64,000 nucleotides of DNA from positions 579 through 64,578 of the forward strand of contig CANIID010000001.1 of assembly GCA_947467315.1 (NCBI GenBank). The letters run 5' to 3'. Source of the DNA: Betaproteobacteria bacterium. GTDB lineage: Bacteria > Pseudomonadota > Gammaproteobacteria > Burkholderiales > SG8-41. Shown in pieces: positions 2,259-60,408 of this stretch (the first letter of the stretch is position 1; each line of letters starts with the position of its first letter). Both the position numbers and the translations under genes were made by a program. The notes below the pieces were generated by a model, which was given only the letters and a program-made list of their open reading frames with translations, was not told the origin of the DNA and did not search any database.

Positions 2259-3298
2259 AAGCGCCGGGAAGGCAGTCTGGATCCGGCACGTTGCGCCGCA
2301 GCGCCGAACGGCGCATCAAGGCAGGCGCCGCACCGCCGCTACCCGTGGCGGCGGACGACACCGTGAGGCTGCTGCATGAAATGAGCGTGTATCAGATCGA
2401 GCTGGAATTGCAAAACGAGGAACTGCGCCAGGCCCGGCATCAGGCCGAATTGGCGATCGCAAGATACAAACAGGAGGCCAAGGCTGCGCGTTTTGCCCGC
2501 GCCGAGGCCGAAGCCGCTAATCTCGCGAAGACCCTGTTCCTCGCCACCCTATCGCACGAGATACGTACGCCGCTATACGGCATACAGCTCGCGGCGGATG
2601 GCCTAAGGCGGCGCGATCTTGGCGAAGAGAAGCACCGCGAATTCGCGGACATGATCGCAGCCTTGGGGCGCCACTTGCGGACGCTGCTCGACAGCATTCT
2701 GGATTCGTCCAAAATCGAGGCCGGCAGAATGGAGCTTTATTGCCAGACGGTTGACCTAAAGGCGCTCGGCGAAGACGTCACTGCGCTGTTTGCCGAGGCG
2801 GCGCACGCCAAGGGTTTGCACATCGAGTTTGTGTGGCCGGGCGGTCGGGATCATTGTTATAGCACCGATGCCGTGCGTGTTCGGCAGATGCTGGCGAATC
2901 TGGTGAGCAATGCGATCAAATTCACGAACTCGGGATTCGTGCGCGTGGAGGCGCACGAAATCAGCCGCGCGGCGCGCGAAGCCGTGCTTGAATTCGCGGT
3001 GTCCGACAGCGGTATCGGCATAGCACCGGAGAAGCACGTTTTGCTGTTCAAGCGTTTTTCGCAGGTGGATGCATCGCACACACGCCGTCAGGATGGCGCG
3101 GGGTTGGGACTGTCCATTGTCAAGGGCATGGCCATTCGCATGGGTGGCGAGGCCGGGGTGGAAAGTGGCGCCGGTAAAGGCGCGCGATTCTGGTTTCGCA
3201 TACGCGCCGGCCTGGACGTGGCGCGCGACACCAAGTCTAGCGCCAAGCCGCGCAGAAACCAACCGCGCGGCAGCCCAGTGCTAACGGTGAAACCATGA
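2255..3298 (+). CDS. Sensor histidine kinase (HisKA + HATPase_c), no obvious TM or receiver domain
   Basis: ATGA overlap with the upstream stop. H-box LSHEIRTPL. G-boxes DSGIGI and GAGLGLSIV. N-terminal QIELELQNEEL coiled coil. Confidence 0.85.
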   Translation: MKAPGRQSGSGTLRRSAERRIKAGAAPPLPVAADDTVRLLHEMSVYQIELELQNEELRQARHQAELAIARYKQEAKAARFARAEAEAANLAKTLFLATLSHEIRTPLYGIQLAADGLRRRDLGEEKHREFADMIAALGRHLRTLLDSILDSSKIEAGRMELYCQTVDLKALGEDVTALFAEAAHAKGLHIEFVWPGGRDHCYSTDAVRVRQMLANLVSNAIKFTNSGFVRVEAHEISRAAREAVLEFAVSDSGIGIAPEKHVLLFKRFSQVDASHTRRQDGAGLGLSIVKGMAIRMGGEAGVESGAGKGARFWFRIRAGLDVARDTKSSAKPRRNQPRGSPVLTVKP

Positions 3299-3554
3299 AT
3301 CTATCAAAGTGCAGCGCCTTCCGCCGCGCTTCCCTTTAACGGACACTGCGAGCCGGTATGCGCAAGACTCCCAACGGCGCTTCGAGGTTGGCAGGAATGA
3401 TTTTCTTGCCACACCCATCGATTTGAACCGGCTGAAAGCGAGACGCGCCAAATGGTTGGAAAAGGCAAATCAAATTGGCCAGTCAGTGGCCAGTGATGGA
3501 CATCGCGCGATCCTTGCCACAAAATTCAGCCTCCTTACCGATGTGGAAAACATA

Positions 3555-4526
3555 GTGGCTACGACAGTTCGTATATTGGTTGGCGTTTTGGCGGCGCTCT
3601 CATGCTGTGCCGCTCCGGTGGCGGCGCAAGGTTATCCCGCGAAACCCATTCGCATCGTCGTGCCGTACCCGCCCGGCGGCGGCACGGATATCGTCGCGCG
3701 CACGCTGGCGCAGTTGATGACGCCGAGCATGGGCCAGCAGGTGGTGGTCGAAAACCGTGGTGGCGCGGGCGGCAATATCGGCATGGATGCGGTGGCGAAG
3801 GCGCCCCCCGATGGCTATACGCTGGTGTTCGCGATTACCGCGCAGTTGGCGGTGAATCCCAGTTTGTTTCCGAAGCTGCCGTTTGACTTGATACGCGACT
3901 ACGCGCCGATCACGCTGGCGGGCATTGCACCGTATCTGCTGGTGGTGCATCCGTCGTTGCCGGCGAAGTCGATGACGGATTTCCTCACGCTGGCACGCAA
4001 TGCGCCCAATGAATTACGCTATGGTTCGGCGGGAAACGGCAGCGGCTCGCACCTTGCGGGTGAAATGCTGAATTCGCTGGCGCGCGTGAAGACGATGCAT
4101 ATTCCGTACAAGGGCGGCGCGCCGGCGATGACGGATTTGATCGCGGGGCAGGTGCAAATCAGTTATCTCACGTACACCTCGACCAGTGCTTTTCTGCGCA
4201 ATGGCCGCTTGCGCGCACTGGGCGTCACCACGTTGAAACGTTCACCGGTGTTGCCCGATCTGCCGGCGATAGCGGAATCCGTGCCCGGCTACGACTCCTC
4301 GGTCTGGTACGGCGCGCTGGCGCCTGCGGGTACGCCGCCGGATATCGTGGCGCGCCTGAATCGCGAATTCGTCGCTGCGCTGAAGACGAATGAATTGCGC
4401 CAACGCCTGAGGCCAGAAGCGTTCGAGGCCCTCGGCAGCACGCCGGAGTATCTGGGCGACTACATGAAAAAAGAAATTGCCCGCTGGGCGAAGCTGGTGA
4501 AGGAAACCGGCGCGAAAATAGATTAA
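3555..4526 (+). CDS. Bug/TctC-family tripartite tricarboxylate transporter substrate-binding protein
   Basis: Signal peptide ends AAQ, followed by GYPAKPIRIVVPYPPGGGTD. Start is probably GTG 3555 or 3543. The ORF-track extension back to 3309 looks non-coding. Confidence 0.85.
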   Translation: MATTVRILVGVLAALSCCAAPVAAQGYPAKPIRIVVPYPPGGGTDIVARTLAQLMTPSMGQQVVVENRGGAGGNIGMDAVAKAPPDGYTLVFAITAQLAVNPSLFPKLPFDLIRDYAPITLAGIAPYLLVVHPSLPAKSMTDFLTLARNAPNELRYGSAGNGSGSHLAGEMLNSLARVKTMHIPYKGGAPAMTDLIAGQVQISYLTYTSTSAFLRNGRLRALGVTTLKRSPVLPDLPAIAESVPGYDSSVWYGALAPAGTPPDIVARLNREFVAALKTNELRQRLRPEAFEALGSTPEYLGDYMKKEIARWAKLVKETGAKID

Positions 4527-5430: not shown

Positions 5431-5576
5431 TTGCGCACTGGGTCGCGCGCATCGCGTTTCATAGTTCGTGTGCGCAACGGTAATTTCTGGCATACGCAAT
5501 GTGTATTACTCGTCGCGGCCTGCGCCCTGTGTTTGCTACCATAGGCTCGTCGATATTGTTCTGCGAAGGAATCATC

Positions 5577-5798
5577 ATGCACACTGCGGACCTCATAGCG
5601 CTACCCTTGGCTGAACGCCTTCAAGCGATGGAAGCGTTATGGGAATCGTTGTGCCGTGACGCGCCCGATAGCCTGCTGTCGCCCGCGTGGCATGCGGATG
5701 TGTTGGCGGCGCGCGCGAAGGCGCTGGATAGCGGTGCAGACCCCACCAGCGCATGGGTTGATGTGAAGCAGCGCATACACGCGAAGACGAATACGTAA
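5577..5798 (+). CDS. Putative addiction-module antitoxin component (small acidic protein)
   Basis: 73 aa, LPLAERLQAMEALWESL motif. GAAGGA RBS before ATG 5577. Lies directly upstream of a ParE/RelE-like ORF. Confidence 0.6.
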   Translation: MHTADLIALPLAERLQAMEALWESLCRDAPDSLLSPAWHADVLAARAKALDSGADPTSAWVDVKQRIHAKTNT

Positions 5799-5809
5799 CG
5801 CGCGCGCCG

Positions 5810-6106
5810 TTGATGGAAATCCGACTCACGCGCTCGGCCGAAGAGGACTTAGTGCGTGGATTCGCGTTTTATGAGGTGCAGCAGCAGTCGCTCGGGACTT
5901 ACTTCCTGGACAGCCTGTACGCCGACATCGATTCATTGATGCTGTATGCGGGAATCCATGCCAAGCCTTTGGGCAGATTTCATCGTGCGCTATCCAAACG
6001 GTTTCCGTTTGCCATTTATTACGAAATCAAGATTGACGTGGTTACCGTCGTGGCAATTCTTGATTGCAGACAGAATCCCGGCGCGACAAAAGCCCGTCTG
6101 GCTTGA
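5810..6106 (+). CDS. ParE/RelE-family toxin (plasmid stabilisation system protein)
   Basis: 98 aa with the typical pattern: A..DL..I..Y at the N-terminus, then FPFAIYYEI....V.VVAILD.RQNP. Confidence 0.65.
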   Translation: MMEIRLTRSAEEDLVRGFAFYEVQQQSLGTYFLDSLYADIDSLMLYAGIHAKPLGRFHRALSKRFPFAIYYEIKIDVVTVVAILDCRQNPGATKARLA

Positions 6107-6233
6107 CCTTGCAAGGCGTGTTCTGTGTGGCTAAGGCAACAGGAATCAAAGTCGAATAGGTTGTTGAATTACCGCCTTCTGGCAATGCGGATGGCGCAGC
6201 GGCGCGTGAGCCTATCGAGCGGGCCTATTCGCG

Positions 6234-7275
6234 CTAGCGCGCCGAGCGATATTGTGGGTTCGTGGTGAGCCCTTCGACAGGCTCAGGATAGGCACAGTGA
6301 ATGCCAATATTCGTGTTCGCCGTACCGGGGATATTGGGATTGCCAGTCCAACCTACACGGGCTAGCTCAGTCAACGTGCTGGGATATACGAATCTGCGTT
6401 CCTCCCTTCTCAAACACGCCGCACGTAACAATAAATCGTTTGCTATCCGGATGCCACGAACTGAAGTGGCAATGCGTTGACTCGACTACTCGTTTTACAA
6501 TTTCTCCCGATGTTGTGTCTATCACAGTCACCGAACTGTACCCTCCGAGGCCTTTGTCTGAATAACTATATGCGCCGACGGCAATTAGATTGTCGTCTGG
6601 TGCGAAATGCAAATGTACAGTTGAAGGATCTTCCATTAACGTTGCAATATGCCGCTCTCGCTGAGAGCCGAAATCGTAAAATTATATTACTGTGCTATAG
6701 AATGAAGAGCTTCTGTCGCTCAATACAGGCACTTCGATTTGTTGATTCTTGGACAAGTTTGGCCGCTCTCAAGGGGAATACGACACTTGAATGGGCGATT
6801 GAATCTTGCCAGCAGCCTTTCCGTCGGTCAGCCGATACATGGTGTCCCCGGCAATCACTACATCGCCTCCTGCCCATCGCAATCCGCCGTAACCAGCATT
6901 CTCTAATGTAACCACCTTTATGCCATCGTTCACACGCCAAGCTCCCAAATTCGAATGGTCACTTGGCCTAACCACGAAGTAATTGCCGTCTGGCGAGACA
7001 TTGGGGTTGCTGTCCCATGCAATGGTTACAGGCAAGGTATAACTTTTAAGAAGCTCTAACGTATTGCTGTCAACTAACGCAACCGCGACATTTCGGCCGC
7101 TGTTAGAAGCGCTGCGATATCCCACAATAACAGCGACGGGCGAGTCGTTCTTGAATCCCATACTTGCGCTGTTCAGCCCTTCTAACGACAAGGAGGGCTG
7201 AGGTAATTGGACGCATCCCACTAGACCGAGGATCATTGTGATCAAAATGAAAAACTGAATCTTCGAATTGTGCAT
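6234..7275 (-). pseudogene. Decayed lipoprotein gene with PD40/TolB-like beta-propeller repeats
   Basis: Lipobox LVGC at the N-terminus. One frame runs from 7275 to 6367 but is broken by in-frame TGA (6769-6771) and TAA (6682-6684). Similarity then continues in another frame to 6234. The region is clearly lower in GC than its flanks. Confidence 0.6.
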
Positions 7276-7313
7276 GCTATTCTTTATGTCGATAGATTCT
7301 TTGCCGTACCTGC

Positions 7314-8774
7314 TCAGGCGGTCGCCACCGCCGCCGCCACCGTCAACCCCAGCTCATCCGCCACCGCCTTCTCAACCACCGTGCCCTTGAAAAACCCCGG
7401 ATTATTCCGTGTATGTAATAGCGCAGCATTGGTAAACGTGAACTCACGGAAATCCTGATCGGTGATGAAGCCCTTTTCCACGTTTTCATAGGCTTCGGGA
7501 ATCACGTCGTTGAAATCCGGCACATCGAAATGCGTGAAGTCGGAGCTGAACACCGGGCGTAGCCGCACGCCCATGCGCGGATCGAAGGCCCACATCGTTG
7601 CGCGGTCATCGGCTTCGCAGCCGAAGAAAAAGTTCCCGGAAAACACCGCGCGGATATCGGCTTTGGAGTTAACACCCGCCGCTTCAAAATCATCGGTGAC
7701 ATGCTCGGGCTGCGAGAGTTCTTCGAGGCTGCACTCGGGGCGGAACGCATCCAGATTATTCACGATCGCGTCGGTGTGGGCTTTCAGGCGCGCGTCGCCG
7801 TAACGGGCGATGAATTGTCTTAGTTCGGCGACGTGGGTGGTGTTCGGATATTGCAAGCCGGCGCGGCGGCGTTTTTCCCAGTGCTCGATCATGTCGCCGA
7901 CCATCTGGCAGGCCCAGCTGACGCCGCCTTCCATGAAGCCAAAATTCAGGCTGGGGAAGCGGCGCGCGACACCACCGAGAAATACGCCGCGCGCGAAAGC
8001 ATGATTCGATTCAGCGAAGTGGCCGACGTGGTTGTAAGTGAAGTTGCTGATCGAGGCGCGATCCGACCAGCGCGGGCTACCCGAATGTTGCGTCACGGCC
8101 ACGCCGAGTTCGACGCAGCGCCGCCAGAACGGATCGTAGTCATAAGGGCTGTCGAGCGCGATGGTGTCGCAATACCACGCGGCTTTTTGCGGGTCGATGC
8201 CTTCGGCGGCGCCGGGAATCACGCGCTCCTGATTGCCACGCAGCATGATTGCCCTGAACCCCAATGTCCCCACCGCGTATTCCAGCTCGTCGATAGCCTG
8301 CCGAGGCGTGCGTGCGGGCAACACGGCGACGGGGGCGAAGCGCGAACGAAATGGCGCAAACATATCCGCCGTCATGCGGTTGTAGGCGCGTGCCGACGCA
8401 TGGTGCAGCTCGTCATCGAGCATCGCATTGATGGTGAGGCCGAAGCTCGGATACATGATCGCAAAATCGATGCCCAATTCCGGCAGGCGTTCGTTGAGCA
8501 GGGCAGGCAGCAGCGCCGTTGCCTTGTCCAGCGTATGACTGGTGACACCCCACCAGATGGCACGGCGCAGGCGATGGTGCTGGCGTTCCTCGACGGTGGA
8601 GCGATACCACGCGTTGTTGCGATGCCACAGCGCGCGGATTTTATCGACGCACGCAGGGCCGCCGACTTCGCTCAGGTATTCCAGAAAGACCGGGATCGGC
8701 TCCATCCAGTGTCCGTCGCCGTCGATGACCGGGTGTTTCAACCCGGCGCGTATCTGTGTTGCGCGATTGCCCAT
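7314..8774 (-). CDS. Amidohydrolase-2 family metal-dependent hydrolase/decarboxylase-like protein
   Basis: N-terminal VIDGDGHWMEP motif typical of amidohydrolase_2. Start taken at MGNRAT (8774). Confidence 0.8.
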   Translation of the reverse strand: MGNRATQIRAGLKHPVIDGDGHWMEPIPVFLEYLSEVGGPACVDKIRALWHRNNAWYRSTVEERQHHRLRRAIWWGVTSHTLDKATALLPALLNERLPELGIDFAIMYPSFGLTINAMLDDELHHASARAYNRMTADMFAPFRSRFAPVAVLPARTPRQAIDELEYAVGTLGFRAIMLRGNQERVIPGAAEGIDPQKAAWYCDTIALDSPYDYDPFWRRCVELGVAVTQHSGSPRWSDRASISNFTYNHVGHFAESNHAFARGVFLGGVARRFPSLNFGFMEGGVSWACQMVGDMIEHWEKRRRAGLQYPNTTHVAELRQFIARYGDARLKAHTDAIVNNLDAFRPECSLEELSQPEHVTDDFEAAGVNSKADIRAVFSGNFFFGCEADDRATMWAFDPRMGVRLRPVFSSDFTHFDVPDFNDVIPEAYENVEKGFITDQDFREFTFTNAALLHTRNNPGFFKGTVVEKAVADELGLTVAAAVATA

Positions 8775-9028
8775 GGTCACTGCTCCTTTCGCGAGTTTAA
8801 AGAACACTAGCCTCAAGCCGGTGAGTCGTCAATTATCGGCAACCCGCATGTCGGCAACCCGCATCGTGCCGGACGTACCGCAGGTCGAATCCACTAAATG
8901 GGCCAATGCGCTGAAACGTAGAGAATTTCACCCGGCGCAGTAGCGCGTAGTAGCTTTATGGCGGGCACCGGGGTTAAAGTAATGCGGTTGCGTATCGCCA
9001 TCCGTACCATCCAATGAAGGGGGAGATC

Positions 9029-10696
9029 ATGAAGCAGATACTGGCCGCGGCCTTGCTGTCGTCCGCATGCGCGTTGTCATGGGCGCAAACCGCCGATGAA
9101 TTGATTAACAGCGGGAAAAATCCGGACAACGTCACCACGTTCGGCATGGGCTATGACTTAAAACAATACAGCCCGCTGAAGCAAATCAACAAGTCGAACG
9201 TCAAACGGCTGGTGCCGGTGTGGAGCGCGAGCCTCGCCAACGAGTCTGGCGAACACGCGCAGCCCTCCATATACAACGGCGTGATGTATGTGGTGAACGG
9301 TAACAATACCTTCGCTTTCGATGTTGCCACCGGCAAACAACTGTGGCGCACGCCGGCCAACTACGACCGCGCGGCCTTGCGCGTGGCAGGCGGCGGCGCG
9401 CTGATGCGCGGCACCGCCACGATTTACAACGGCAAGCTGTTTCGCACGTACGTCGACGCGCATGTGGCCGCGCTCGACATGAAGACCGGCAAGGAACTTT
9501 GGAAAACCAAATTCGCCGAATGGAAAGAGGGATACAAAGGCGTGGTGGCGCCGATCATCGCCAACGGCGTGCTGGTGTCGGGCATGGGTGGCGGCGACAG
9601 CACCACGCGCGGATTTATCGAGGGCTACGATCCGGAGACCGGCAAGCGGCTGTGGCGTACGCACACCGTTCCTGCGCCGGGCGAAAAAGGTTCAGAGACC
9701 TGGCCCAATGCCAACAAGCCCGATGCCTGGAAATACGGCGGCGGCGCGACCTGGCAATATGCCAACTACGATCCGCAGCTCGACCTGATTTACGTCGGCA
9801 CCGGCAATGCCGAGCCGTACAACCCGTCGTATCGCGAAGGACAGGATTCGCTCTACACCGCAAGCATCATTGCGCTGCGGCCCAAGACCGGCGAGATGGT
9901 GTGGCACTACCAGTATGTGCCCAACGACAGCTATGACTACGATGCCACGGCGGAAAGCATCCTCGCCGACATCAACGTCGAAGGCAAACCGCGCAAGGTG
10001 CTGATCAATCCGCACAAGAACGGATTCTTGTATGTGCTGGATCGCACCAACGGCCAGTTGATCGCCGCCAACCCGTATGTGAAGGTGACGTGGGCGACGC
10101 ATATCGACATGAAAACCGGCCGGCCGGTGCTGACCGACATTCTGCAAAAAGCGATGGCTGGCGAGCAGGTTACTTTTTGGCCGGCGCGAGGCACCAATGC
10201 CACGCTGGGGGCGTTTAACCCGAACACCGGGCTGGTGTATCTGAATGCGTGGCACAAGGCGCGCATCATGAAGTTTGTCGAGGCCAAGCTGAATTTGGGT
10301 TCTGGTTACACCGGCGTCGAAACCACCTTCACCACGCCCGAGGGCGAGCCGCAGGGCCACCACAAGGCGATCAATCCGCTGACCGGCAAAGAGGTGTGGA
10401 GTGTTCCGTTTTACGACGCGGTGAACTCGGCGGGCATGCTGGCCACAGACGGCGGCTTACTGTTCACTGGCAAACTGACCGGCGAAGTCATCGCGTTGGA
10501 CATGGAAAACGGCAAGCAACTGTGGCACTTCAAAACCGGCTCCGGCATCAACGCCGCGCCGATTACCTACACGCACAAAGGCGTACAGTACGTGACGATA
10601 GTGTCGGGTATCGGTGGCAGCAATCCGCTGCGCTTCGCGGGCCGCATGATTGCGCCGGGCGGATCGGTGTGGACGTTTGCGTTAATGCCGGAATAA
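9029..10696 (+). CDS. PQQ-dependent dehydrogenase, methanol/ethanol-family-like, divergent (paralog 1)
   Basis: Signal peptide. YSPLKQINKSNVKRLVPVW entry motif and propeller repeats throughout. DSYDYDA around the presumed catalytic Asp. AAGGGGGA RBS before ATG 9029. Confidence 0.85.
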   Translation: MKQILAAALLSSACALSWAQTADELINSGKNPDNVTTFGMGYDLKQYSPLKQINKSNVKRLVPVWSASLANESGEHAQPSIYNGVMYVVNGNNTFAFDVATGKQLWRTPANYDRAALRVAGGGALMRGTATIYNGKLFRTYVDAHVAALDMKTGKELWKTKFAEWKEGYKGVVAPIIANGVLVSGMGGGDSTTRGFIEGYDPETGKRLWRTHTVPAPGEKGSETWPNANKPDAWKYGGGATWQYANYDPQLDLIYVGTGNAEPYNPSYREGQDSLYTASIIALRPKTGEMVWHYQYVPNDSYDYDATAESILADINVEGKPRKVLINPHKNGFLYVLDRTNGQLIAANPYVKVTWATHIDMKTGRPVLTDILQKAMAGEQVTFWPARGTNATLGAFNPNTGLVYLNAWHKARIMKFVEAKLNLGSGYTGVETTFTTPEGEPQGHHKAINPLTGKEVWSVPFYDAVNSAGMLATDGGLLFTGKLTGEVIALDMENGKQLWHFKTGSGINAAPITYTHKGVQYVTIVSGIGGSNPLRFAGRMIAPGGSVWTFALMPE

Positions 10697-10708
10697 TCAG
10701 GAAAAATA

Positions 10709-12388
10709 ATGAATAAATTCAAATATTTACGGTTTATTTTTGCGGCGGCGGTGCTGGTTGCCACCGGCGGCGCACACGCGCAATCCGTCGACGAACTGCG
10801 CAACAACAAAAACACCGACAACGTGCTGAGTTTCGGCATGGGCAACGACCTGAAGATGTGGAGCCCGCTGAACAAGATCAACAAATCCAACGTCAAGCGC
10901 CTGGTGCCGGTATGGCATTTCAGTACCGCCAATAACGGTGGCGAGCTGTCGCAGCCGACCGTGTACAACGGCGTGATGTACGTGGTGAACGCCGAATGGA
11001 CGTTCGCCATCGATGTGGCCACCGGTAAGCAAATCTGGCGCACGCCGGTGAATTTCGACCGCGGCGTGATGCGCGTGGCAAGTACCGGTGCGATCATGCG
11101 CGGCGCCGCGACCATCTATGACGGCAAGCTCTTTCGCCAGACGCTCGATGCGCACGTGATGGCGCTCGACATGAAAACCGGCAAGGAAATCTGGAAAACC
11201 AAATTCTGCGAAACCTATGCCGCAGGTTGCCGCGGCGTGATCGCCCCGCAGATTTTTAACGGCGTGCTGGTGTCCGGCATGGCTGGCGGCGACAGCACCA
11301 ATCGCGGCTTCGTCGATGGCTACGACCCCAACACCGGCAAACGGCTGTGGCGCACCTGGACCATACCCGAGCCGGGCGAAAAAGGCTCGGAAACCTGGCC
11401 GCACAAAACCTGGCCGGATGCCTGGAAATACGGCGGCGGCGCGACATGGCAATCGTCGTCGTACGATCCGGAACTCGATTTACTCTACATCGGCACCGGC
11501 AACGCGCAGCCCTATAACCCGAAGTACCGCGACGGCATGGACAGCCTGTGTACCACCTGTGTGCTCGCGCTGCGGCCCAAGACCGGCGAGGTGGTGTGGT
11601 TCTACCAGACCATACCCAATGATGCGTTTGACTTTGACGCCAACGCGGAATGGATGATCGCGGACCTGCGCGTCGAAGGGCAGATGCGCAAGGTGCTGAT
11701 CAGCGCGCACAAGGGCGGGTTTCTCTACGTGATTGACCGCACCAATGGCAAGCTGATCGCGGCCAATCCTTATGTGCGCGTCAACTGGGCGAGCCGCATC
11801 GATCTGAAGACCGGCCGCCCGGTCATGACCGACCTTCTGGATCGTGCGTTGAAGGGCGAAACCGTGGAAGTGTTTCCGTCGCGCGGTACCAATGCCACGT
11901 TGATTGCGTTCAACCCGAAAACCAGTCTGATTTATGCGAACACCTGGAACCTTGCGCGCGTGTTGAAATACATCGACGTCAAGCACATACCGGGCGGCAA
12001 CACGACCGGGATCGAGTCCACCGCCATGACGCCCAAGGGCGAGCCGGTCGGCCATCACCGTGCCATCGAACCGCTGACCGGCAAGGTAGTTTGGGAAACG
12101 CCGCTGATGGAAACGCCAAGCTCGGCGGGCATGCTGGCGACCGATGGCGGGCTGCTGTTTACCGGCATACTGACCGGCGAAATGGTCGCGCTCGATATCG
12201 ATAGCGGCAAACGGCTGTGGCAGTTTCAAACGGGATCCAGCATCAACGCGCCGCCTATCACCTACACGCACAAGGGTGTGCAATATGTCTCGGTGCAGTC
12301 GGGCAAGGCCGGCGCTTCGGCGTCCCGCTACAATCAGAATGTGCCGGCGGGCGGATCGGTGTGGACATTCGCCGTGATGCAGGATTGA
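10709..12388 (+). CDS. PQQ-dependent dehydrogenase, divergent (paralog 2)
   Basis: Aligns end to end with paralogs 1 and 3 by eye. Signal peptide present. DAFDFDA motif. Confidence 0.85.
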   Translation: MNKFKYLRFIFAAAVLVATGGAHAQSVDELRNNKNTDNVLSFGMGNDLKMWSPLNKINKSNVKRLVPVWHFSTANNGGELSQPTVYNGVMYVVNAEWTFAIDVATGKQIWRTPVNFDRGVMRVASTGAIMRGAATIYDGKLFRQTLDAHVMALDMKTGKEIWKTKFCETYAAGCRGVIAPQIFNGVLVSGMAGGDSTNRGFVDGYDPNTGKRLWRTWTIPEPGEKGSETWPHKTWPDAWKYGGGATWQSSSYDPELDLLYIGTGNAQPYNPKYRDGMDSLCTTCVLALRPKTGEVVWFYQTIPNDAFDFDANAEWMIADLRVEGQMRKVLISAHKGGFLYVIDRTNGKLIAANPYVRVNWASRIDLKTGRPVMTDLLDRALKGETVEVFPSRGTNATLIAFNPKTSLIYANTWNLARVLKYIDVKHIPGGNTTGIESTAMTPKGEPVGHHRAIEPLTGKVVWETPLMETPSSAGMLATDGGLLFTGILTGEMVALDIDSGKRLWQFQTGSSINAPPITYTHKGVQYVSVQSGKAGASASRYNQNVPAGGSVWTFAVMQD

Positions 12389-12396
12389 AAAGAAAC

Positions 12397-12720
12397 ATGA
12401 GCCTGGTGATGATGAAGACTGTTTTTTGTGGGGCGCTCGTGCTGGTGTGTGCAAGTGCCGTGGCGCAGAACGCGGTGGTGACGCCGGAGCAGATCAAGAC
12501 TGGCGCCGAAATTTATGCCGCCAATTGCGCCACCTGCCACGGCAATCGCATGAAAAATCCGGAGTGGGCGATTGATCTGGCGACCATCCCCAAGGATGAC
12601 CGCCAGCGGTTTGTTCAGTCGGTGACCAATGGCAAGGGCAACATGCCGCCGTGGGGTGATGTGTTGAAGCCCGATGATATCGCGGCGCTGTGGGCTTATT
12701 TTTCGACGGGTGAAAAGTAG
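12397..12720 (+). CDS. Monohaem c-type cytochrome, likely electron acceptor of the adjacent dehydrogenases
   Basis: 107 aa, signal peptide, single CATCH haem site, distal NMPPWG methionine region. Starts 8 nt after the paralog 2 stop. Confidence 0.8.
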   Translation: MSLVMMKTVFCGALVLVCASAVAQNAVVTPEQIKTGAEIYAANCATCHGNRMKNPEWAIDLATIPKDDRQRFVQSVTNGKGNMPPWGDVLKPDDIAALWAYFSTGEK

Positions 12721-12748
12721 TTTCAGTTTGACCAACGGGAGAGTGACA

Positions 12749-14428
12749 ATGAAAAAGCTGTTAGTAACGATGCTGTTAAGCGCAAGCTGCGCCCTGAGCA
12801 CCATAAGTACCATGGGCCACGCGCAAACCGCGGAAGAAATACTCAACAAGGGCAATAACACCGAAAATGTGCTGAGTCACGGCATGGGCTACGACGCGCG
12901 TAGCTGGAGCACGCTGTCGCAAATCAATAAGTCGAATGTGAAGCGCCTGGTGCCGGTGTGGAACTTCAGTCTCGCCAACGACATGGGCGAGCTGTCACAG
13001 CCTACGGTCTACAACGGTGTGATGTACGTGGTGAACGGCAGCTGGACCTTCGCCATTGACATCGCCACCGGCCGGCAAATCTGGCGCACGCCGGTGAACT
13101 ATGATCGTGCGGCGCTGCGTGTCACCACCGGCGGCGCGTATCTGCGCGGCCACGCAACGATCTACAACGGCAAGTTGTTCCGCCAGACTATTGATGCGCA
13201 CGTCGTCGCGCTCGACATGAAAACCGGCAAGGAAATCTGGAAAACCAAGATTGCCGAGTGGAAAGAAAGTTACGGCGGCATCGTGCAACCGATGATCGCC
13301 AACGGCGTGCTGATTTCCGGTATCGCGGGCGGCGACCGCACCGCGCGCGGTTTTGTCGATGGCTACGATCCGGAAACCGGCAAGCAGTTGTGGCGCCGCT
13401 GGACCGTGCCCGCGCCGGGCGAGCCGGGATCGGAGACGTGGCCGAACAAGGACAAGCCTGACGCCTGGAAATACGGCGGCGGCGCGCCATGGCAGCCGGC
13501 CACGTATGATCCGGAGACGGATCTGGTGTTTGTCGGCACCGGCAACGCCGAGCCGTACAACCCGAAATACCGCATGGGCATGGATAGCCTGTTTACCGCC
13601 AGTGTGATCGCGCTACGCCCCAAGACCGGCGAGTTGGCGTGGTACTACCAGTTTCTGCCCAACGACAGCTTCGATTTCGACGCCACGGCGGAAAACATCG
13701 TTGCCGAGATTCAGATCGACGGCAAGCCGCGCAAGGTACTGATCAACGTCAACAAGAACGGCTTTGTATATGTGCTTGATCGCACCAATGGCAAGCCTAT
13801 CGCCGCGCATCCGTTTACCAATCAAAACTGGGCGAAGCATATTGATCTGAAAACGGGGCGTCCCGTATTGACCGATCTGCTCGATCGCGCGATCAAGGGC
13901 GAAACCATCGATCTGAATCCGCGGCTCGGTACCAACGCCACGTTGTCGGCGTTTAACCAGAAAACCGGCATGCTGTATCTGAACTCGTGGGAAATTTTCC
14001 GCGTGATGAAATTCGTCGATGAAAAGCTGGTCGTCGGTTCGGGTTACACCGGGGTTGAAGGCGGCGCCAAGGTTCCCGAAATTACGGGCTACCACGTGGC
14101 GATGAATCCGCTCACCGGAAAAGCCGCGTGGAAGATTCCGCTGCGCGACTTTGCGGTGTCGGCCGGCACGCTGGGCACCGACGGCGGATTGTTGTTCACC
14201 GGCAAGCTCACTGGCGAAGTGATCGCGCTCGATCAGGCCGACGGTAAGCAGTTGTGGCAGTTCAAAACCGGCTCCAGCATCAACGCCCCACCCATCACCT
14301 ACACGCACAAAGGCCAGCAGTACGTGACGGTGTTGTCGGGACGCGGCGGCAGCAACCCCAGCCGTTCGGCGGGTGCGGTAATACCCACCGGCGGTTCGGT
14401 GTGGACGTTTGCGTTGATGCAGGACTAA
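12749..14428 (+). CDS. PQQ-dependent dehydrogenase, divergent (paralog 3)
   Basis: GGGAGAG RBS before ATG 12749. Signal peptide. DSFDFDA motif. Aligns with paralogs 1 and 2. Confidence 0.85.
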   Translation: MKKLLVTMLLSASCALSTISTMGHAQTAEEILNKGNNTENVLSHGMGYDARSWSTLSQINKSNVKRLVPVWNFSLANDMGELSQPTVYNGVMYVVNGSWTFAIDIATGRQIWRTPVNYDRAALRVTTGGAYLRGHATIYNGKLFRQTIDAHVVALDMKTGKEIWKTKIAEWKESYGGIVQPMIANGVLISGIAGGDRTARGFVDGYDPETGKQLWRRWTVPAPGEPGSETWPNKDKPDAWKYGGGAPWQPATYDPETDLVFVGTGNAEPYNPKYRMGMDSLFTASVIALRPKTGELAWYYQFLPNDSFDFDATAENIVAEIQIDGKPRKVLINVNKNGFVYVLDRTNGKPIAAHPFTNQNWAKHIDLKTGRPVLTDLLDRAIKGETIDLNPRLGTNATLSAFNQKTGMLYLNSWEIFRVMKFVDEKLVVGSGYTGVEGGAKVPEITGYHVAMNPLTGKAAWKIPLRDFAVSAGTLGTDGGLLFTGKLTGEVIALDQADGKQLWQFKTGSSINAPPITYTHKGQQYVTVLSGRGGSNPSRSAGAVIPTGGSVWTFALMQD

Positions 14429-14522
14429 GTCACAAAGGGCGGCACACCGGCGCCGTCGTTCTGGCGTAGGCCAGAACCCAGTTCGTAATCATGCGGCGCT
14501 TTGCGCCGGAAGATAACGCGCT

Positions 14523-14549
14523 GGATACCGGCCTGCGCCGGTATGACGG
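14523..14549. repeat. REP-like palindrome, family A (GGATACCGGCCTGCGCCGGTATGACGG)
   Basis: 8-bp stem ATACCGGC/GCCGGTAT around CTGC. Near-identical copies at 26832 and 37169. Confidence 0.6.
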
Positions 14550-14601
14550 GTTCTGCGGAATCGCCTCGACTTTTCGCTCTTGCGTTTCGCGGCGCTATGT
14601 A

Positions 14602-15525
14602 TCAAGGCCCAATGCGCGGGTTGTAGAAGAATTCACGAATCATGAATTCTTCCAGACCCGCGTTGTCGCGCTCCCGCGCGGAGAGCGTCACGAATTTGTT
14701 CATGCGGTGCGAGCGCCACTGAAAATCGCCCTGCACGTTGGCGCGTATGATTTCGATCATTTTTCGCACCACCGCCAGTTCGATGTTCTCATTGTTGCCC
14801 TTGCGCACTTCAACCAGTTGCTGCAGGTTGCGGCGCGCATCCGTGTGCCAGCCGTTGAACATGAATTCGGCGTAATCGACGCCGCGGTTCTTCATTGTAA
14901 AAATACCACCGCTGCGATTAGGATCGCTGCGATTAGGATCGTAACCCACGCCCTGTGCTTTTTGCGTGGCCAGATTGGCCACCGCCAGCCGCGTGGCGCG
15001 CGCGTTTTCATCTTCGGCGGGTGGTGATGCCACTGCGGGAGATTCGCCACGCGCGCGGCGCTGCGCTTCCACGTAGGCCGCGAAGTCTTCTGCCGGTGGT
15101 GCGCGCATCGGCGGTGGCGCGGCTTCCTTGGGCGCCGGTGGCGTGATTGCGATTACTGGTGGCGGCGCGTTCCTGGGCGGTGTAGGGGGCGTTTGTGGCG
15201 CGCGCGCCACTGGCGGCGGCGTTGGCGCGGCCACGGGTGGTGCCGGCGGTACCGGTGGTACCGGTGGTACGATGGCGCGCCGCTGCGGCGGCGTGACCAC
15301 CGCTGGAGGCGGGCCGGGTATGGGTTGCAGCTTGACGGTTAGCGGCGGCGGCGAAGCATCATCCAGCGGCGGCTTTTGTATTTGCCACTGCCACAGCACG
15401 GCAACATGCAGCAGCACCGACAGTGCGATCGCGAGCTGGAAATTCGAGATGGTGATGCCATCGCGCCGCCGGTCAATGTTGCCGGCCTCGTCATGCATGG
15501 TGCAGAGGGAATGCAGAAAAACCAT
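14602..15525 (-). CDS. Proline-rich membrane-anchored protein with TonB-like architecture, function unknown
   Basis: One N-terminal TM helix, a long P/A/V-rich linker, and a C-terminal globular domain. Start is ATG 15525 or 15498. Confidence 0.6.
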   Translation of the reverse strand: MVFLHSLCTMHDEAGNIDRRRDGITISNFQLAIALSVLLHVAVLWQWQIQKPPLDDASPPPLTVKLQPIPGPPPAVVTPPQRRAIVPPVPPVPPAPPVAAPTPPPVARAPQTPPTPPRNAPPPVIAITPPAPKEAAPPPMRAPPAEDFAAYVEAQRRARGESPAVASPPAEDENARATRLAVANLATQKAQGVGYDPNRSDPNRSGGIFTMKNRGVDYAEFMFNGWHTDARRNLQQLVEVRKGNNENIELAVVRKMIEIIRANVQGDFQWRSHRMNKFVTLSARERDNAGLEEFMIREFFYNPRIGP

Positions 15526-15543
15526 TTAAAAACATATACTTAT
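15525..15543 (+). repeat. AT-rich 19-nt boundary motif, copy 1 (TTTAAAAACATATACTTAT)
   Basis: Matches consensus TTTAAAAACAWATASTTAC. Abuts the ATG at 15525. Confidence 0.6.
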
Positions 15544-15554
15544 AATATTGTCGC

Positions 15555-15881
15555 TCAATGCAGTGTGCGGATGTTGGGTACCACCAGCAAACCCACGTTG
15601 AGCAGCGTCACGCGTTTGCCCAGCATCACCACGCTGCCGTGGACGCGGTTGTTGCCGGTATCGCTGTATTCAAAATCGTAAGCGCGTTGCAATTTCAAGC
15701 GCCCTTCGCTGTCGCGCGCCGGTTTCAGGCTCGCGATGCCGACGGTGTCGTCGAGAAACAGCAATCCTTCCGCTTCGCATGCCGCGCGCGCCGCGCGCAC
15801 CGCCGCTTCACGCGCTTCTAGGCTGTCGTACCACAGCCAGCCCAACAATAGGAGGGCGATCAGGCCCAGGAGTTCCAGCAT
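15555..15881 (-). CDS. Small membrane-anchored protein, DUF3301-like
   Basis: N-terminal TM helix, then WYDSLEAREAA..AAR.AC and LLDDTV motifs remembered from DUF3301 proteins. Confidence 0.5.
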   Translation of the reverse strand: MLELLGLIALLLLGWLWYDSLEAREAAVRAARAACEAEGLLFLDDTVGIASLKPARDSEGRLKLQRAYDFEYSDTGNNRVHGSVVMLGKRVTLLNVGLLVVPNIRTLH

Positions 15882-16011
15882 AAAAGTTGCACTCGATTTT
15901 CAAAGCCCGATTTTTCCATGCATCGCGCGATGCGGATAGTATGCCGGTTCGTGTATTCTTCGTGAAATAAAAAGTGTGAGCAAACGTACGGACGTTCGCA
16001 AGGAAAGGACC

Positions 16012-17007
16012 ATGACTCTCCTCAAGACTACCCGGTATGGCTTCGTTGCCGCGCTGGTTTCAACGCTGCTAGTGCCGGCCTGCGCGTGGGCGCAAGGCTG
16101 GAAGCCCGATCAGCCGGTCGAAATCATTGTCAATTGCGCGCCGGGCTGCGGGCCGGATCGCATGTCGCGGCTGATGCAGGCGGTGTTCCAGAACCAAAAG
16201 TTTGTCGAAGCCGCGCTCTCGGTGCAAAACCGCACGGGCGGCGGCGGTGCGGTCGCGCAAACGTATCTCAATCAATTCGCCGGCAACGGCCATTACCTTT
16301 TTCACACCGGCAAATCGGTGCTGACCACGCACGCGATGGGGCGCAGTGTCGCGCCGTATACCGAGCTCACGCCGATCGCGAATTTATTCGGCGAGTACAT
16401 CGGCGTAGCGGTGAAAGCGGATTCGCCGATAAAGTCCGGCCGCGATTTGATCGAGCGTATGAAAAAAGACCCTGCCGCGGTGAGCTTCGGCATCGCCACC
16501 AGTATCGGCAACACCAATCACCAGGGTGTGGCGGGTGCGTTGAAGAGCGCCGGCGTTGACATCCGCAAGGCGCGCAACGTGGTGTTTCAGTCGGGCGCGC
16601 TGGCGATCGTCGCCATGCTCGGCGGCCACATCGACGCGGTGCCGGTTTCGGTGGGCAGTTGGGTGCCGCATATGAAAACTGGAGCGGTACGCGTGATCGC
16701 AGTGTCGTCGGCGGAAAGATTGCCGGGATTTTTTGCCGGCATCCCGACGTGGCGCGAGCAAGGCGCGAATGCGGTGGTGTCGAACTGGCGTGGCGTGTTC
16801 GGGCCAAAGGGCATGAGCGCCGCGCAAGTCGCGTACTGGGAAAATACGTTTCAACGTCTTGTCGAAACCCCGGAATGGAAAGCGGAGATGGTGACGTTAA
16901 ACGGACTCTCGGAATTCATGGGCGCCGCGCGTCTGAAAAAGTACATGGACGAAGATTACGCCGAGATCAAGGCGTTTCTGCTGGCGCTGGAGTTGGCGAA
17001 GAAATGA
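16012..17007 (+). CDS. Bug/TctC-family substrate-binding protein (variant N-terminal motif)
   Basis: Signal peptide ends AWAQ. VEIIVNCAPGCGPD replaces the usual PPGGGTD. AGGAAAGG RBS before ATG 16012. Confidence 0.8.
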   Translation: MTLLKTTRYGFVAALVSTLLVPACAWAQGWKPDQPVEIIVNCAPGCGPDRMSRLMQAVFQNQKFVEAALSVQNRTGGGGAVAQTYLNQFAGNGHYLFHTGKSVLTTHAMGRSVAPYTELTPIANLFGEYIGVAVKADSPIKSGRDLIERMKKDPAAVSFGIATSIGNTNHQGVAGALKSAGVDIRKARNVVFQSGALAIVAMLGGHIDAVPVSVGSWVPHMKTGAVRVIAVSSAERLPGFFAGIPTWREQGANAVVSNWRGVFGPKGMSAAQVAYWENTFQRLVETPEWKAEMVTLNGLSEFMGAARLKKYMDEDYAEIKAFLLALELAKK

Positions 17008-17978
17008 ACGCAGTAACGCGACTGATATTTGTGCTTGCGTGCGTTTCGGTTTGCGACCTCGCGTGGGCGGCCGCCGCCGGCTGGCGCCCCGAGCGCCCGG
17101 TGCGTCTGCTGGTGCCGCAAGCACCCGGCGGCGCCGCGGATGCCGCCGCGCGCGCCATTACGCCCAAGCTGCACGAGTCGCTGGGCCAGCCGTGGGTGCT
17201 CGACAATCGCGGTGGCGCGGCAGGCAATATCGCGTCTGAAATCGTCGCGCGTGCCAATCCCGATGGGCATACCGTGTTTCTCGGCCTAAACACCATGGTC
17301 ACCGTCAATCCCACGCTCTACAAGCTGCCGTTTGATGTGGCAACAGAGCTGATCCCGGTATGCCGCGTGACCTATGGGCAATACCTGTTGCTGATTCATC
17401 CCTCGGTTAAGGCCGAGAACCTCAAGTCGTTTATTGATCTGGGCAAGGCACGCAGCGCGCCGTTTAACTACTCGTCGGCAGGCATGGGTTCGCCGTCGAA
17501 TCTGGCGATGGAATTGTTTCGATTGCGCGCGGGCATTGCCATGACGCATATTCCGTACAAGGGCGGCGCGCCCGCGACCGCGGCTTTGCTCGGTGGCGAG
17601 GTGCAAACGCATTTCACCAATCTGGTGCTGGCGTTGCCGCACGTGCGATCAGGGCGTTTGAAGGGGCTGGGTATTTCCGGACCGAAACGCGTCGCGCTGG
17701 CGCCCGAGATGCCCACCATTGCCGAGCAGGGCTTTGCGGGCTTTGACGTGACATCCTGGTACGGATTGTTCTTACCCGCGAAAACGCCCATGGCCATTTT
17801 GCAGACGCTGGAAGCTGAAACCGCGAAGGCGCTGGCGGCTCCCGATGTGATTGAACTGATGTCGCGTCAGGGCATCGAGGCTGCGTTTCTTCCGCAGGGC
17901 GCGTTCGCCGAGCAAGTGAAACGCGAAACCGCGACGTGGGCGAAAGTCATTCGCGAAGCGAACATCAAGGCGCAATAA
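17004..17978 (+). CDS. Bug/TctC-family substrate-binding protein
   Basis: ATGA overlap with the upstream stop. Signal peptide, then RPVRLLVPQAPGGAAD. Confidence 0.85.
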   Translation: MNAVTRLIFVLACVSVCDLAWAAAAGWRPERPVRLLVPQAPGGAADAAARAITPKLHESLGQPWVLDNRGGAAGNIASEIVARANPDGHTVFLGLNTMVTVNPTLYKLPFDVATELIPVCRVTYGQYLLLIHPSVKAENLKSFIDLGKARSAPFNYSSAGMGSPSNLAMELFRLRAGIAMTHIPYKGGAPATAALLGGEVQTHFTNLVLALPHVRSGRLKGLGISGPKRVALAPEMPTIAEQGFAGFDVTSWYGLFLPAKTPMAILQTLEAETAKALAAPDVIELMSRQGIEAAFLPQGAFAEQVKRETATWAKVIREANIKAQ

Positions 17979-20407: not shown

Positions 20408-21400
20408 CTATTCCGCCTGCAAGCCCGCCAGCTTTACCAGCTCTGCTGAACGCTTGATCGATGTCACGACAAACTCACGAAACGCGGCGGGCGTGTTGCC
20501 GACCGGTTCCATGCCGATGGCCGCGAGGCCGTCGCGCACCGCGGCAACACCAAGCGCCTTGCGGATTTCGGCGTGCAGTTTCGACACAATCGCAGCGGGT
20601 GTTTTCGCCGGCGCGAACACGCCGTACCAGCTTGAATCCATTTCCATGCCTTTGACGCCGGCTTCGATCATGGTGGGCACATTGGGCAGCAGCGGTGAAC
20701 GCGTAGGCGCGTTGTAGGCGAGCGCGCGGATGCGGCCTGCCTTCACTGCGCCGATCAGTGTGCCGGGGTTGGCGATGGCGATTTGAATTTCGCCACTGAT
20801 GAGCGCCACCGTGACCGGGCCGCCGCCTTTGTACGGCACATGCGTCAGATCAATGCCGGTGCGCGCCGCAAACAGCGCCGCCGCGAGGTGCGTGACATTG
20901 CCGACACCCGATGAACCGTAGGCGAATTTTGCGCCGGGGCGCTTCGCTTGTTGAACTAATTCCTGCACTGTTGTCGCGGCGACGGTGGGCGCAACCGTCA
21001 GCAGCAGCGCTTCCGACGAGGCGAGATTGGTAATGGGCTCGAAACTTTTCACCGCATCAAACGGCAGTTTGCGCGCGATGCTCGGGTTGATAGCGAAGGC
21101 CGCTGAGGTGATTAACAGCGTGTAGCCATCGGGATTGGATTTCGCAACGATATCCGCCGCCAGTATGCCGTTTGCGCCGGGACGATTGTCGAGCACCACG
21201 GATTGCCCCAACTGCGCGGTGAGTTGCGGCGTGATGACCCGTGCAACCGCATCCGGCGACCCGCCCGGCGCGAAGCCGAGCACCCAGCGCACTGGACGCG
21301 TGGGGTAATCCTGTGCGGCGGCGAGCACGGGCAGCGCGAGCGCGCAGGCGGCGAATAAGGTGCCGACAGTAGGCGTTAAAAAATTATGCAATAAAAACAT
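20408..21400 (-). CDS. Bug/TctC-family substrate-binding protein
   Basis: Signal peptide ends AAAQ, then DYPTRPVRWVLGFAPGGSPD. Confidence 0.85.
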   Translation of the reverse strand: MFLLHNFLTPTVGTLFAACALALPVLAAAQDYPTRPVRWVLGFAPGGSPDAVARVITPQLTAQLGQSVVLDNRPGANGILAADIVAKSNPDGYTLLITSAAFAINPSIARKLPFDAVKSFEPITNLASSEALLLTVAPTVAATTVQELVQQAKRPGAKFAYGSSGVGNVTHLAAALFAARTGIDLTHVPYKGGGPVTVALISGEIQIAIANPGTLIGAVKAGRIRALAYNAPTRSPLLPNVPTMIEAGVKGMEMDSSWYGVFAPAKTPAAIVSKLHAEIRKALGVAAVRDGLAAIGMEPVGNTPAAFREFVVTSIKRSAELVKLAGLQAE

Positions 21401-60363: not shown

Positions 60364-60408
60364 ATTCACGCCGTGCCGTCCTTGCCGGTTCACCCGGGAG
60401 CAGCCCAA

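Follow-up and report, generated by a model that had tools for sequence, protein, structure and literature searches.

Can a quinoprotein dehydrogenase pass electrons to cytochrome c when it lacks the vicinal disulfide of its family? The role of the strained Cys-Cys ring of pyrroloquinoline quinone (PQQ) dehydrogenases has been debated for decades, with the ring seen as an electron relay to cytochrome c, as a protection for the semiquinone or as a purely structural element; ExaA without the ring is severely impaired in electron transfer to cytochrome c550. A locus that raises this question lies in a 64-kb stretch of a betaproteobacterial contig (CANIID010000001.1; hereafter the window), where three PQQ-dehydrogenase homologues accompany a small cytochrome c gene. 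A sequence-only reading of this DNA had proposed a distinct, possibly rare-earth-dependent clade that reduces cytochrome c without the Cys-Cys relay. Our analysis confirms the underlying observation and supports the interpretation in part. The window's proteins belong to a large, uncharacterised and mostly uncultured clade that has kept the lanthanide-type metal motif and lost the Cys-Cys ring, which is generally regarded as needed for electron transfer to cytochrome c. With moderate confidence, we view them as cytochrome-c-linked, probably lanthanide-dependent PQQ dehydrogenases in which the ring is not involved.

Gene organisation

Four co-directional open reading frames (ORFs) follow an intergenic region that is common to a divergent gene:

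8817-9028, + strand: 5' intergenic region, common to the divergent amidohydrolase gene; holds the ribosome-binding site (RBS) GGGGGAG
9029-10696, + strand: copy 1 dehydrogenase, 555 amino acids (aa); periplasmic 8-bladed PQQ-dehydrogenase homologue
10709-12388, + strand: copy 2 dehydrogenase, 559 aa; paralog, 65% identical to copy 1
12397-12720, + strand: monohaem cytochrome c, 107 aa with signal peptide; class I, c6-like
12749-14428, + strand: copy 3 dehydrogenase, 559 aa; paralog, 69% identical to copy 1

The gaps between successive ORFs are 12, 8 and 28 nucleotides (nt), and copy 1, copy 2, the cytochrome c gene and copy 3 form a single operon. This layout agrees with the sequence-only reading, which had described three co-directional paralogs with signal peptides (their sizes are 555, 559 and 559 aa) and, wedged between copies 2 and 3 with 8- and 28-nt gaps, a CATCH-bearing monohaem cytochrome, borne out here by its ORF and a Pfam match. 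The copies share 65-69% identity at the protein level and ~70% at the DNA level. Each carries an N-terminal Sec-type signal peptide with A-x-A at its end and Q as the next residue, and apart from these signal peptides no membrane anchor was found in copies 1-3. The entry motif YSPL, by contrast, had been ascribed to all three copies and occurs only in copy 1, which reads YSPLKQINKSNVKRLVPVW; copies 2 and 3 begin the corresponding stretch WSPLNKINK... and WSTLSQINK..., respectively.

The RBS followed by ATG 9029 is kept in relatives L005-L008 (L-numbers denote related loci; P-numbers, used below, denote 50%-identity cluster representatives or related proteins). Because of this conservation, we place the start of copy 1 at ATG 9029 rather than at the upstream ATG 9014. 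Scans of the locus for promoters and terminators gave signals at chance level, and an Rfam scan gave 0 matches.

Residues at the disulfide and metal sites

Residues were placed by HMMER pairwise alignments to ADH-IIB (1kv9), PedH (6zcv/6zcw), ExaA (1flg) and ADH-IIG (1yiq); at both the Glu and the D-x-D site, posterior support is high. The motif strings quoted in the earlier reading are all present exactly in the three copies. Opposite ExaA C105-C106, copies 1, 2 and 3 read RVAGGGALMRG, RVASTGAIMRG and RVTTGGAYLRG, with G121-G122, S-T and T-G, respectively, at the Cys-Cys position. The register of this loop is ambiguous by one residue, which is harmless because mature copies 1 and 3 contain zero Cys and the four Cys of copy 2 (C167, C174, C281 and C284) are located elsewhere. 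Hence the proposed absence of a vicinal Cys-Cys stands, both in the alignments to solved structures and in the Cys-free mature copies 1 and 3.

Opposite the bidentate metal-ligand Glu (E179 of ExaA, corresponding to E177 of MxaF), the copies read GGGDSTTRG, AGGDSTNRG and AGGDRTARG; the alignments to proteins of solved structure therefore agree with the suggested replacement of Glu by Asp in all three. Around the catalytic Asp they read DSYDYDA, DAFDFDA and DSFDFDA (motifs DYD, DFD and DFD). This D-x-D, likewise placed correctly before, lies opposite PedH D-F-D, ExaA D316-F-S318 and ADH-IIB D-F-T. The ligands predicted by alignment are as follows:

Copy 1, predicted metal ligands: D190, N260, D303 (catalytic base) and D305
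Copy 2, predicted metal ligands: D195, N265, D308 and D310
Copy 3, predicted metal ligands: D196, N266, D309 and D311

Via these alignments, D190, N260, D303 and D305 of copy 1 correspond to the La3+ ligands of XoxF1, namely Glu192, Asn276, Asp318 and Asp320 (bioRxiv 10.1101/2020.02.25.964783).

The cysteines of copy 2 lie in FCETYAAGC (aa 166-174; window 11204-11230) and in a CxxC, C281-T-T-C284 (aa 280-284; window 11546-11560). All four are kept in the closest orthologs (L005.2, L006.2, L007.2, L008.2 and L048.1), and they could form structural disulfides or a paralog-specific redox or metal motif.

Family, fold and the PQQ site

Copies 1-3 match the Pfam PQQ family (PF01011) at 1e-63 to 1e-68. 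Against TIGR03075 (methanol/ethanol family) they score 507, 490 and 482 bits, which, with a cut-off of 480, makes membership marginal. Solved relatives are all similarly distant (~30-36% identity), the best being ADH-IIB (1.5e-101), followed by PedH (1.9e-95). An AlphaFold2 model of copy 1 (pLDDT 78.7, pTM 0.84) is an 8-bladed propeller, for which Foldseek returned PedH as top match (TM-score 0.85) and then XoxF1, ADH-IIB and ExaA; TM-scores to PedH, XoxF, ExaA, ADH-IIB and MxaF are 0.83-0.87. The TIGR03075 match and the PedH-like predicted fold bear out the view of these proteins as a distinct clade of methanol/ethanol-family homologues. At 555-559 aa, they consist of the propeller only, and the fused C-terminal cytochrome c domain of type II enzymes is absent.

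The hallmark residues of the methanol/ethanol family are present in copy 1, as aligned to ExaA, PedH and ADH-IIB: D303, N260, W242, R127, K330 and N390. These residues and D305 are invariant among 47 clade members. R127, W242, K330 and N390 are the PQQ contacts predicted by alignment; from the roles of their MxaF and ExaA counterparts, R127 would contact the PQQ carboxylate, W242 would stack on PQQ, K330 would be the Lys/Arg that faces PQQ O4/O5, and N390 would contact O4. Other positions in the alignment have changed. The Trp that precedes the catalytic Asp in classical enzymes is Tyr or Phe here, the Trp of GNPxPWN is Tyr, the Trp following the N394 equivalent is Ala, and the equivalents of MxaF W476 and T159 are Ser/Asn and Val/Ile, respectively.

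Such changes would suit cofactor-less, 'empty' propellers with a non-redox role in binding or scaffolding, like the acidobacterial homologues of TIGR04528 (acido-empty-quinoprotein group A). Several classical PQQ-pocket Trp/Thr residues are gone together with the Cys-Cys, pqq genes are not nearby, and TIGR04528 is the second-best NCBIfam match. Its scores (353-391 bits), however, fall far under the cut-off of 650, and the residues that bind the metal, serve as catalytic Asp, stack on PQQ (Trp) or hold its carboxylates (Arg/Lys/Asn) are invariant. Strong purifying selection also argues against empty propellers, as does the conserved linkage to a cytochrome c, with fusion in a close relative, which would be sensible only for a redox enzyme. 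We regard a cofactor-less role as highly improbable.

Distribution of the clade and identity of the metal

A search of a 5.8-billion-protein collection, in which 8000 candidates were scored, gave 7307 matches at E ≤ 1e-30. None of the best 120 falls below 69% identity to copy 1; nearly all are metagenomic, and those that are named carry generic labels; the closest named organism among the matches is Polynucleobacter kasalickyi (71%). The window's own proteins were found in metagenome assemblies only. With one genome per species, 532 loci contain relatives, and the best 80 of these 532 were analysed. They come from metagenome-assembled genomes (MAGs) of Betaproteobacteria/Burkholderiales (lakes, soils, groundwater and glacier streams) and from other taxa (Xanthobacteraceae, Vicinamibacterales and other Acidobacteria, and one Gemmatimonadetes), the nearest locus being that of UBA5216 (95%). 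The clade is very abundant in lake, soil, groundwater and glacier-fed stream metagenomes, with thousands of sequences and always with the lanthanide-type motif.

The three features differ in their distribution. D-x-D is invariant in the clade (123 + 107 sequences), and the nearest outgroups are all of D-x-D type. Among full-length 50%-identity cluster representatives, the nearest are 44-47% identical and have Cys-Cys, Glu and D-x-D. The ligand site is more variable: Asp is found in the copy 1, 2 and 3 types, and Glu in a basal proteobacterial group (TGGEHATRG), in an Acidobacteria group and in a copy-1-type sub-lineage (GGGESTTRG) that is 72-75% identical to copy 1. Some carboxylate is always there. 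In sequence terms, then, the site reads as an interchangeable carboxylate and carries no clade signature, and the suggestion that Asp-for-Glu defines the clade fails on these 72-75% identical relatives and on the basal members, all of which have Glu.

What does this imply for the metal? It is the D-x-D motif that points to a lanthanide. The same enzyme with the same cytochrome link might instead have a Ca2+ or metal-promiscuous site, the D-x-D having been inherited without lanthanide specificity. D-x-D is not strictly diagnostic, since membrane glucose dehydrogenase carries it and runs on Ca/Mg (PMC11996626); in all three window proteins a bidentate Glu has given way to the shorter Asp; and the window holds no lanthanide-uptake or lanmodulin-like genes. 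Set against these points are the invariance of the second Asp in all clade members examined and the uniformly D-x-D outgroups. Moreover, the second Asp is needed for lanthanide coordination and function in XoxF1 and ExaF, and Ca enzymes have Ala, Ser or Thr in its place (bioRxiv 10.1101/2020.02.25.964783). We consider a Ca2+ or promiscuous site unlikely, though deserving of some weight, and continue with a lanthanide as the favoured metal.

Repeated loss of the Cys-Cys ring

Cys-Cys is missing from every proteobacterial member of the window's lineage (98% bootstrap). The sister lineage (100% bootstrap) is mixed, comprising Cys-Cys-bearing Burkholderiales proteins (L068, L074 and L078; 'AQACCGV') and Cys-Cys-less Acidobacteria-type proteins, several of which have a 4-residue deletion at the Cys-Cys site. 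The next group out bears Cys-Cys ('RVVCCG'). Because the sister lineage is mixed and the next group out retains the ring, Cys-Cys was probably lost at least two times, in a lineage whose nearest relatives retain it. These are neighbour-joining trees only, made with Kimura distance and bootstrapped (100 replicates). A first neighbour-joining tree, based on BLOSUM distance, had a single loss, which we rejected when Cys-Cys-less monophyly was seen in 1 of 100 bootstrapped Kimura-distance replicates.

The sequence-only reading had treated the window's proteins as exceptional, which goes too far. Many other uncharacterised clusters of the superfamily lack Cys-Cys or have Asp at the Glu site, so neither feature is unique in sequence space; Cys-Cys loss and D-x-D are each common in uncharacterised relatives; and their combination is already in print for other lineages (PMC7300363). 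Our literature search found no characterised Cys-Cys-less, cytochrome-linked D-x-D enzyme and no characterised member of the clade, and later papers using the PQQ-ADH types of Keltjens et al. 2014 do not describe the clade or its cysteines. Two long relatives, P0044 and P0097 (809-826 aa), were considered as fusions and rejected, both being without a Pfam domain outside the propeller; the N-terminal extension of P0044 reads as an Arg-rich over-called ORF.

The cytochrome c and its link to the dehydrogenases

The operon cytochrome c has CATCH at aa 44-48 and a Met-ligand motif, GNMPPW, and its mature form is ~9 kDa. It matches Pfam Cytochrome_CBB3 at 2e-17; it is c6-like (best PDB match 1e-8), and the haem domain of ADH-IIB is matched at 2e-5. 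A homologous monohaem cytochrome c of ~105 aa is adjacent and co-directional in 51 of the 80 loci, usually as the last gene in an array of 1-4 dehydrogenase genes. The order found here (dehydrogenase, dehydrogenase, cytochrome, dehydrogenase) recurs in L005, L007 and L008, and one dehydrogenase gene lies on either side of the cytochrome gene in L009, L010, L027 and L037.

P0124, a quinohaemoprotein of 676 aa that stands among the nearest outgroup representatives, has a C-terminal haem domain with 43% identity to the cytochrome (E 3e-22). P0124 has Cys-Cys, Glu and D-x-D and is a candidate lanthanide-type quinohaemoprotein. Because the operon cytochrome matches the fused haem domains of P0124 and ADH-IIB, the operon module looks like a split quinohaemoprotein. 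It is this apparent split form that argues most strongly for a direct uptake of electrons from the PQQ domain by the cytochrome, and the adjacent cytochrome c is very probably, as judged from linkage and homology, the electron acceptor of the dehydrogenases. Adjacency and homology to a fused haem domain thereby lend partial support to the claim of transfer without a Cys-Cys relay.

Further support for this view comes from six loci (L016, L031, L034, L035, L040 and L045), in which Cys-Cys-bearing and Cys-Cys-less paralogs precede one shared cytochrome gene. Given at least two losses and these mixed arrays, Cys-Cys appears to be dispensable in the window's lineage. The six loci (in L035, positions 10001-17124) are three- or four-gene dehydrogenase arrays from Betaproteobacteria MAGs. 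The mixed arrays have one Cys-Cys-bearing paralog ('RVVCCG', Glu and D-x-D) that is 56-57% identical to copy 1.

A different acceptor is conceivable: the proteins could be active PQQ dehydrogenases that deliver their electrons elsewhere, as the Cys-Cys-less membrane glucose dehydrogenases do, with the cytochrome gene as a passenger. The Acidobacteria-type Cys-Cys-less sister lineage, which has no adjacent cytochrome, fits such a scheme. A passenger gene is harder to square with gaps of only 8-28 nt here and the same position in 51 of 80 loci, with homology to the fused haem domains of P0124 and ADH-IIB, or with dehydrogenases that lack a membrane anchor. In addition, direct electron transfer from PQQ to cytochrome c was reportedly proposed for the Cys-Cys-less Pseudogluconobacter ADH (4cvb), studied by Rozeboom in 2015, a precedent that also counts against it. 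Another acceptor is, in our judgement, improbable, and we retain the operon cytochrome in this role.

Proposed mechanism

In the scheme that we favour, the three Sec-exported 8-bladed propellers would bind PQQ and a metal ion, the latter held by Asp190 (Glu in relatives) and Asn260 together with Asp303, the catalytic base, and an extra residue, Asp305. The metal would most likely be a light lanthanide, because the extra Asp marks XoxF, ExaF and PedH. A substrate of the alcohol, aldehyde or polyol type would be oxidised at PQQ C5, and two electrons would then leave singly, directly from reduced PQQ to the operon cytochrome c and from there to a terminal oxidase. The vicinal Cys-Cys ring, which in classical enzymes is placed over PQQ, would take no part.

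Several points weigh against this scheme. The classical PQQ pocket is not kept in full, PQQ binding nevertheless being likely. At the metal site, Asp for Glu means a shortened ligand, and the occurrence of D-x-D in the Ca/Mg-dependent glucose dehydrogenase makes the motif less than fully diagnostic. The cytochrome is not an ortholog of PedF/ExaB, XoxG or MxaG, with NCBIfam scores of 22-33 bits against cut-offs of 122-148 (PedF, 32.8 bits with a cut-off of 122; MoxG, 22.3 bits with a cut-off of 147.8), and no adjacent cytochrome c accompanies the Acidobacteria-type Cys-Cys-less sister lineage in any of its sampled loci. The 64-kb window is without genes for PQQ biosynthesis, lanthanide uptake or xoxJ, and no experiment on any clade member was found in the literature searched. 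Finally, the idea of an Arg-lined pocket, described below, derives from loop alignments.

Age and specificity of the three copies

Each copy clusters with its own orthologs from other genomes (100% bootstrap per orthogroup), and synonymous divergence (dS) between copies is ~0.85-0.89. Relative to orthologs in L005, L007 and L008, ratios of nonsynonymous to synonymous divergence (dN/dS) are 0.06-0.14 for the dehydrogenases and 0.08-0.23 for the cytochrome c. The copies are old paralogs under purifying selection. The amplification to three copies put forward earlier is consequently not recent: the dS values, the separate orthogroups and the retention of the gene order in other loci all speak against it, and the dS values together with the separate orthologs of each copy led us to reject both recent amplification and gene conversion. 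Since the copies are old and separately conserved, they probably differ in substrate or metal range. Positions near the active site vary between orthogroups and are constant within them, including S-G-[I/K/R]-G-G at the Trp of PedH SGWGG and the loop 462-469, a pattern that fits divergence in specificity.

Two arginines stand out at the entrance of the predicted active site. R535, which does not vary in the 47-sequence alignment, is placed opposite PedH W561, and R387, kept in nearly all displayed clade sequences, neighbours the position of PedH F412. The PDB sequences 6zcv and 6zcw differ at exactly these two PedH positions, F412 and W561; we take the differences to be the specificity-engineering substitutions F412V and W561A. 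As aligned, R387 and R535, along with the replacement of several bulky active-site Trp residues by smaller ones, hint that the pocket is wider and positively charged and might accept acidic hydroxy compounds. The two arginines could equally serve in cytochrome docking or PQQ binding. The most far-reaching version of our proposal, a widespread lanthanide-PQQ lineage that reduces a dedicated c6-like cytochrome c without a disulfide and uses an Arg-lined, Trp-depleted pocket for a new substrate class, is tentative, and we hold it to be possible but doubtful.

Surrounding genes

Within the 64 kb, pqq and xoxJ genes are missing, as had been noted, and lanmodulin and lanthanide-uptake genes were likewise not found. 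A CheB/CheR-PAS protein and a histidine kinase are encoded ~6 kb upstream, with nothing to tie them to the operon. These genes occupy window 21-3298: first comes a CheB-methylesterase/CheR-methyltransferase/PAS fusion, cut off by the start of the window, and then a histidine kinase of HisKA/HATPase type.

Across the 80 loci, in which recurring neighbours were sought for indications of substrate, regulator or lanthanide handling, the cytochrome c alone recurs, and for this reason the substrate cannot be read from gene context. An Amidohydro_2 gene lies directly upstream of copy 1 in divergent orientation, and L006 likewise has Amidohydro_2 immediately upstream of its copy 1. Just upstream of the arrays in L006 and L008 is a dihaem ORF of ~410-440 aa with two CxxCH motifs, which may be a cytochrome c peroxidase or MauG-like. 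Two apparent neighbour 'families' proved to be antisense ORFs of the dehydrogenase genes and were rejected. Other features of the window are listed here:

3309-4526, 15976-17007, ~17004-17978, 20408-21400, 23718-24695, 29001-29981, 29987-30943, 37138-38133: TctC genes
14602-15525, - strand: proline-rich protein, 307 aa; N-terminal membrane helix, proline-rich stretch and conserved C-terminal domain; no Pfam match
15555-15881, - strand: DUF3301 gene, adjoining the proline-rich gene

At least eight TctC (Bug-family) periplasmic solute-binding genes are thus present in the 64 kb, an expansion typical of Burkholderiales; as common background in that group, they were rejected as linked neighbours. 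The proline-rich and DUF3301 genes form a pair that is syntenic 3' of dehydrogenase arrays in nine related loci, on the opposite strand. We rejected the proline-rich gene as a member of the system, its synteny being confined to near relatives, its strand opposite and a Pfam match lacking.

Window 5810-6106 encodes a ParE-like toxin (weak Pfam match), and the adjoining small ORF (~5570-5800) is annotated Unstab_antitox in related contigs; the two are probably a type II toxin-antitoxin pair. G+C falls to 53% in window 6001-8000, compared to ~60% elsewhere. The ORF at 6769-7275 (- strand) encodes 168 aa with a hydrophobic, lipoprotein-like N-terminus, has no Pfam match and is found in the same place in near-identical contigs. 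No Pfam match was obtained either for the ORFs at 50238-51884 (- strand, 548 aa) and 59962-61629 (- strand, 555 aa), the second of which overlaps an opposite-strand 402-aa ORF in the window's highest-G+C part and may not be a real gene.

Implications

The clade offers a natural comparison set. Cys-Cys-bearing and Cys-Cys-less paralogs are 57-60% identical and sometimes share one operon and one cytochrome, and a fused relative exists; these are natural matched pairs, and the role of the Cys-Cys ring is therefore directly testable. If the most far-reaching version of our proposal is true, mixed operons that feed one cytochrome would mean that the ring is not mechanistically required for PQQ-to-haem transfer. 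In that event, the periplasmic quinoproteins of abundant, uncultured freshwater and soil Burkholderiales would also have a new class of substrates, e.g. acidic hydroxy compounds. The clade would, moreover, be a further indication that periplasmic oxidation with rare earths is widespread among non-methylotrophs.

Comparison with known systems

Enzymes without the disulfide are known outside this clade. The Pseudogluconobacter ADH (4cvb), the Ketogulonicigenium sorbose dehydrogenase (4mh1) and the DON dehydrogenases (7wmd, 22vi and 9m2c) are soluble, 8-bladed and also disulfide-free, but far more distant (E 1e-50 to 1e-55, 25-27% identity), and the metal ligands of 4cvb are said, from the same 2015 work of Rozeboom, to be drawn from different parts of the chain. 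Because these enzymes are only 25-27% identical, their loss of Cys-Cys appears to be independent of, and convergent with, that in the window's clade. Quinoproteins of heterotrophic marine Thaumarchaeota also lack Cys-Cys, have DYD/D-x-D and occur as many, uncharacterised paralogs per genome (PMC7300363). They resemble the clade by published description, yet are archaeal and mostly membrane-anchored, in hosts without cytochrome c (PMC7300363). More broadly, 14 of 17 D-x-D families in an ocean survey are uncharacterised (PMC11996626), and 15 clades of eight-bladed PQQ proteins with the lanthanide motif have been described from weathered rock (bioRxiv 10.64898/2026.07.10.737718).

Compared with the methanol/ethanol family as a whole, the window's proteins depart from the Cys-Cys hallmark, and the family-specific cytochromes and accessory genes are also missing from the window. 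In architecture, the operon resembles a split version of the type II quinohaemoproteins. ADH-IIB (1kv9), the best sequence match among solved structures, has a fused haem domain homologous to the operon cytochrome and combines it with Cys-Cys, a Glu ligand and D-F-T (Ca type); in the window, the haem domain is a separate gene. P0124 has fused haem, Cys-Cys, Glu and D-x-D, whereas the window's module is split, Cys-Cys-less and has Asp and D-x-D.

XoxF (7o6z, 4mae, 6dam and 6oc5) shares the fold, D-x-D, the Asn and Asp ligands and a cytochrome c acceptor, here predicted. It is 30-34% identical, retains Cys-Cys and Glu and is accompanied by xoxG and xoxJ, in contrast to the window, which has no xoxJ; the Trp residues that form the small methanol pocket of XoxF are replaced in the window's proteins. 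PedH/ExaF (6zcw) is the best structural match, also a soluble periplasmic 8-bladed propeller with D-x-D, the Asn ligand, the stacking Trp, the PQQ-binding Arg and Lys, and a separately encoded cytochrome c partner. Identity to it is ~35%, and the window's proteins differ in lacking Cys-Cys, in having Asp (or Glu in relatives) at the Glu ligand, Tyr/Phe before the catalytic Asp and Arg at or beside PedH W561 and F412, and in their cytochrome, which is c6-like rather than of PedF/ExaB type; ped-type accessory genes are not nearby. By analogy, these enzymes most likely work as PedH, ExaF or XoxF do, with PQQ and a lanthanide, an Asp base and cytochrome c as acceptor.

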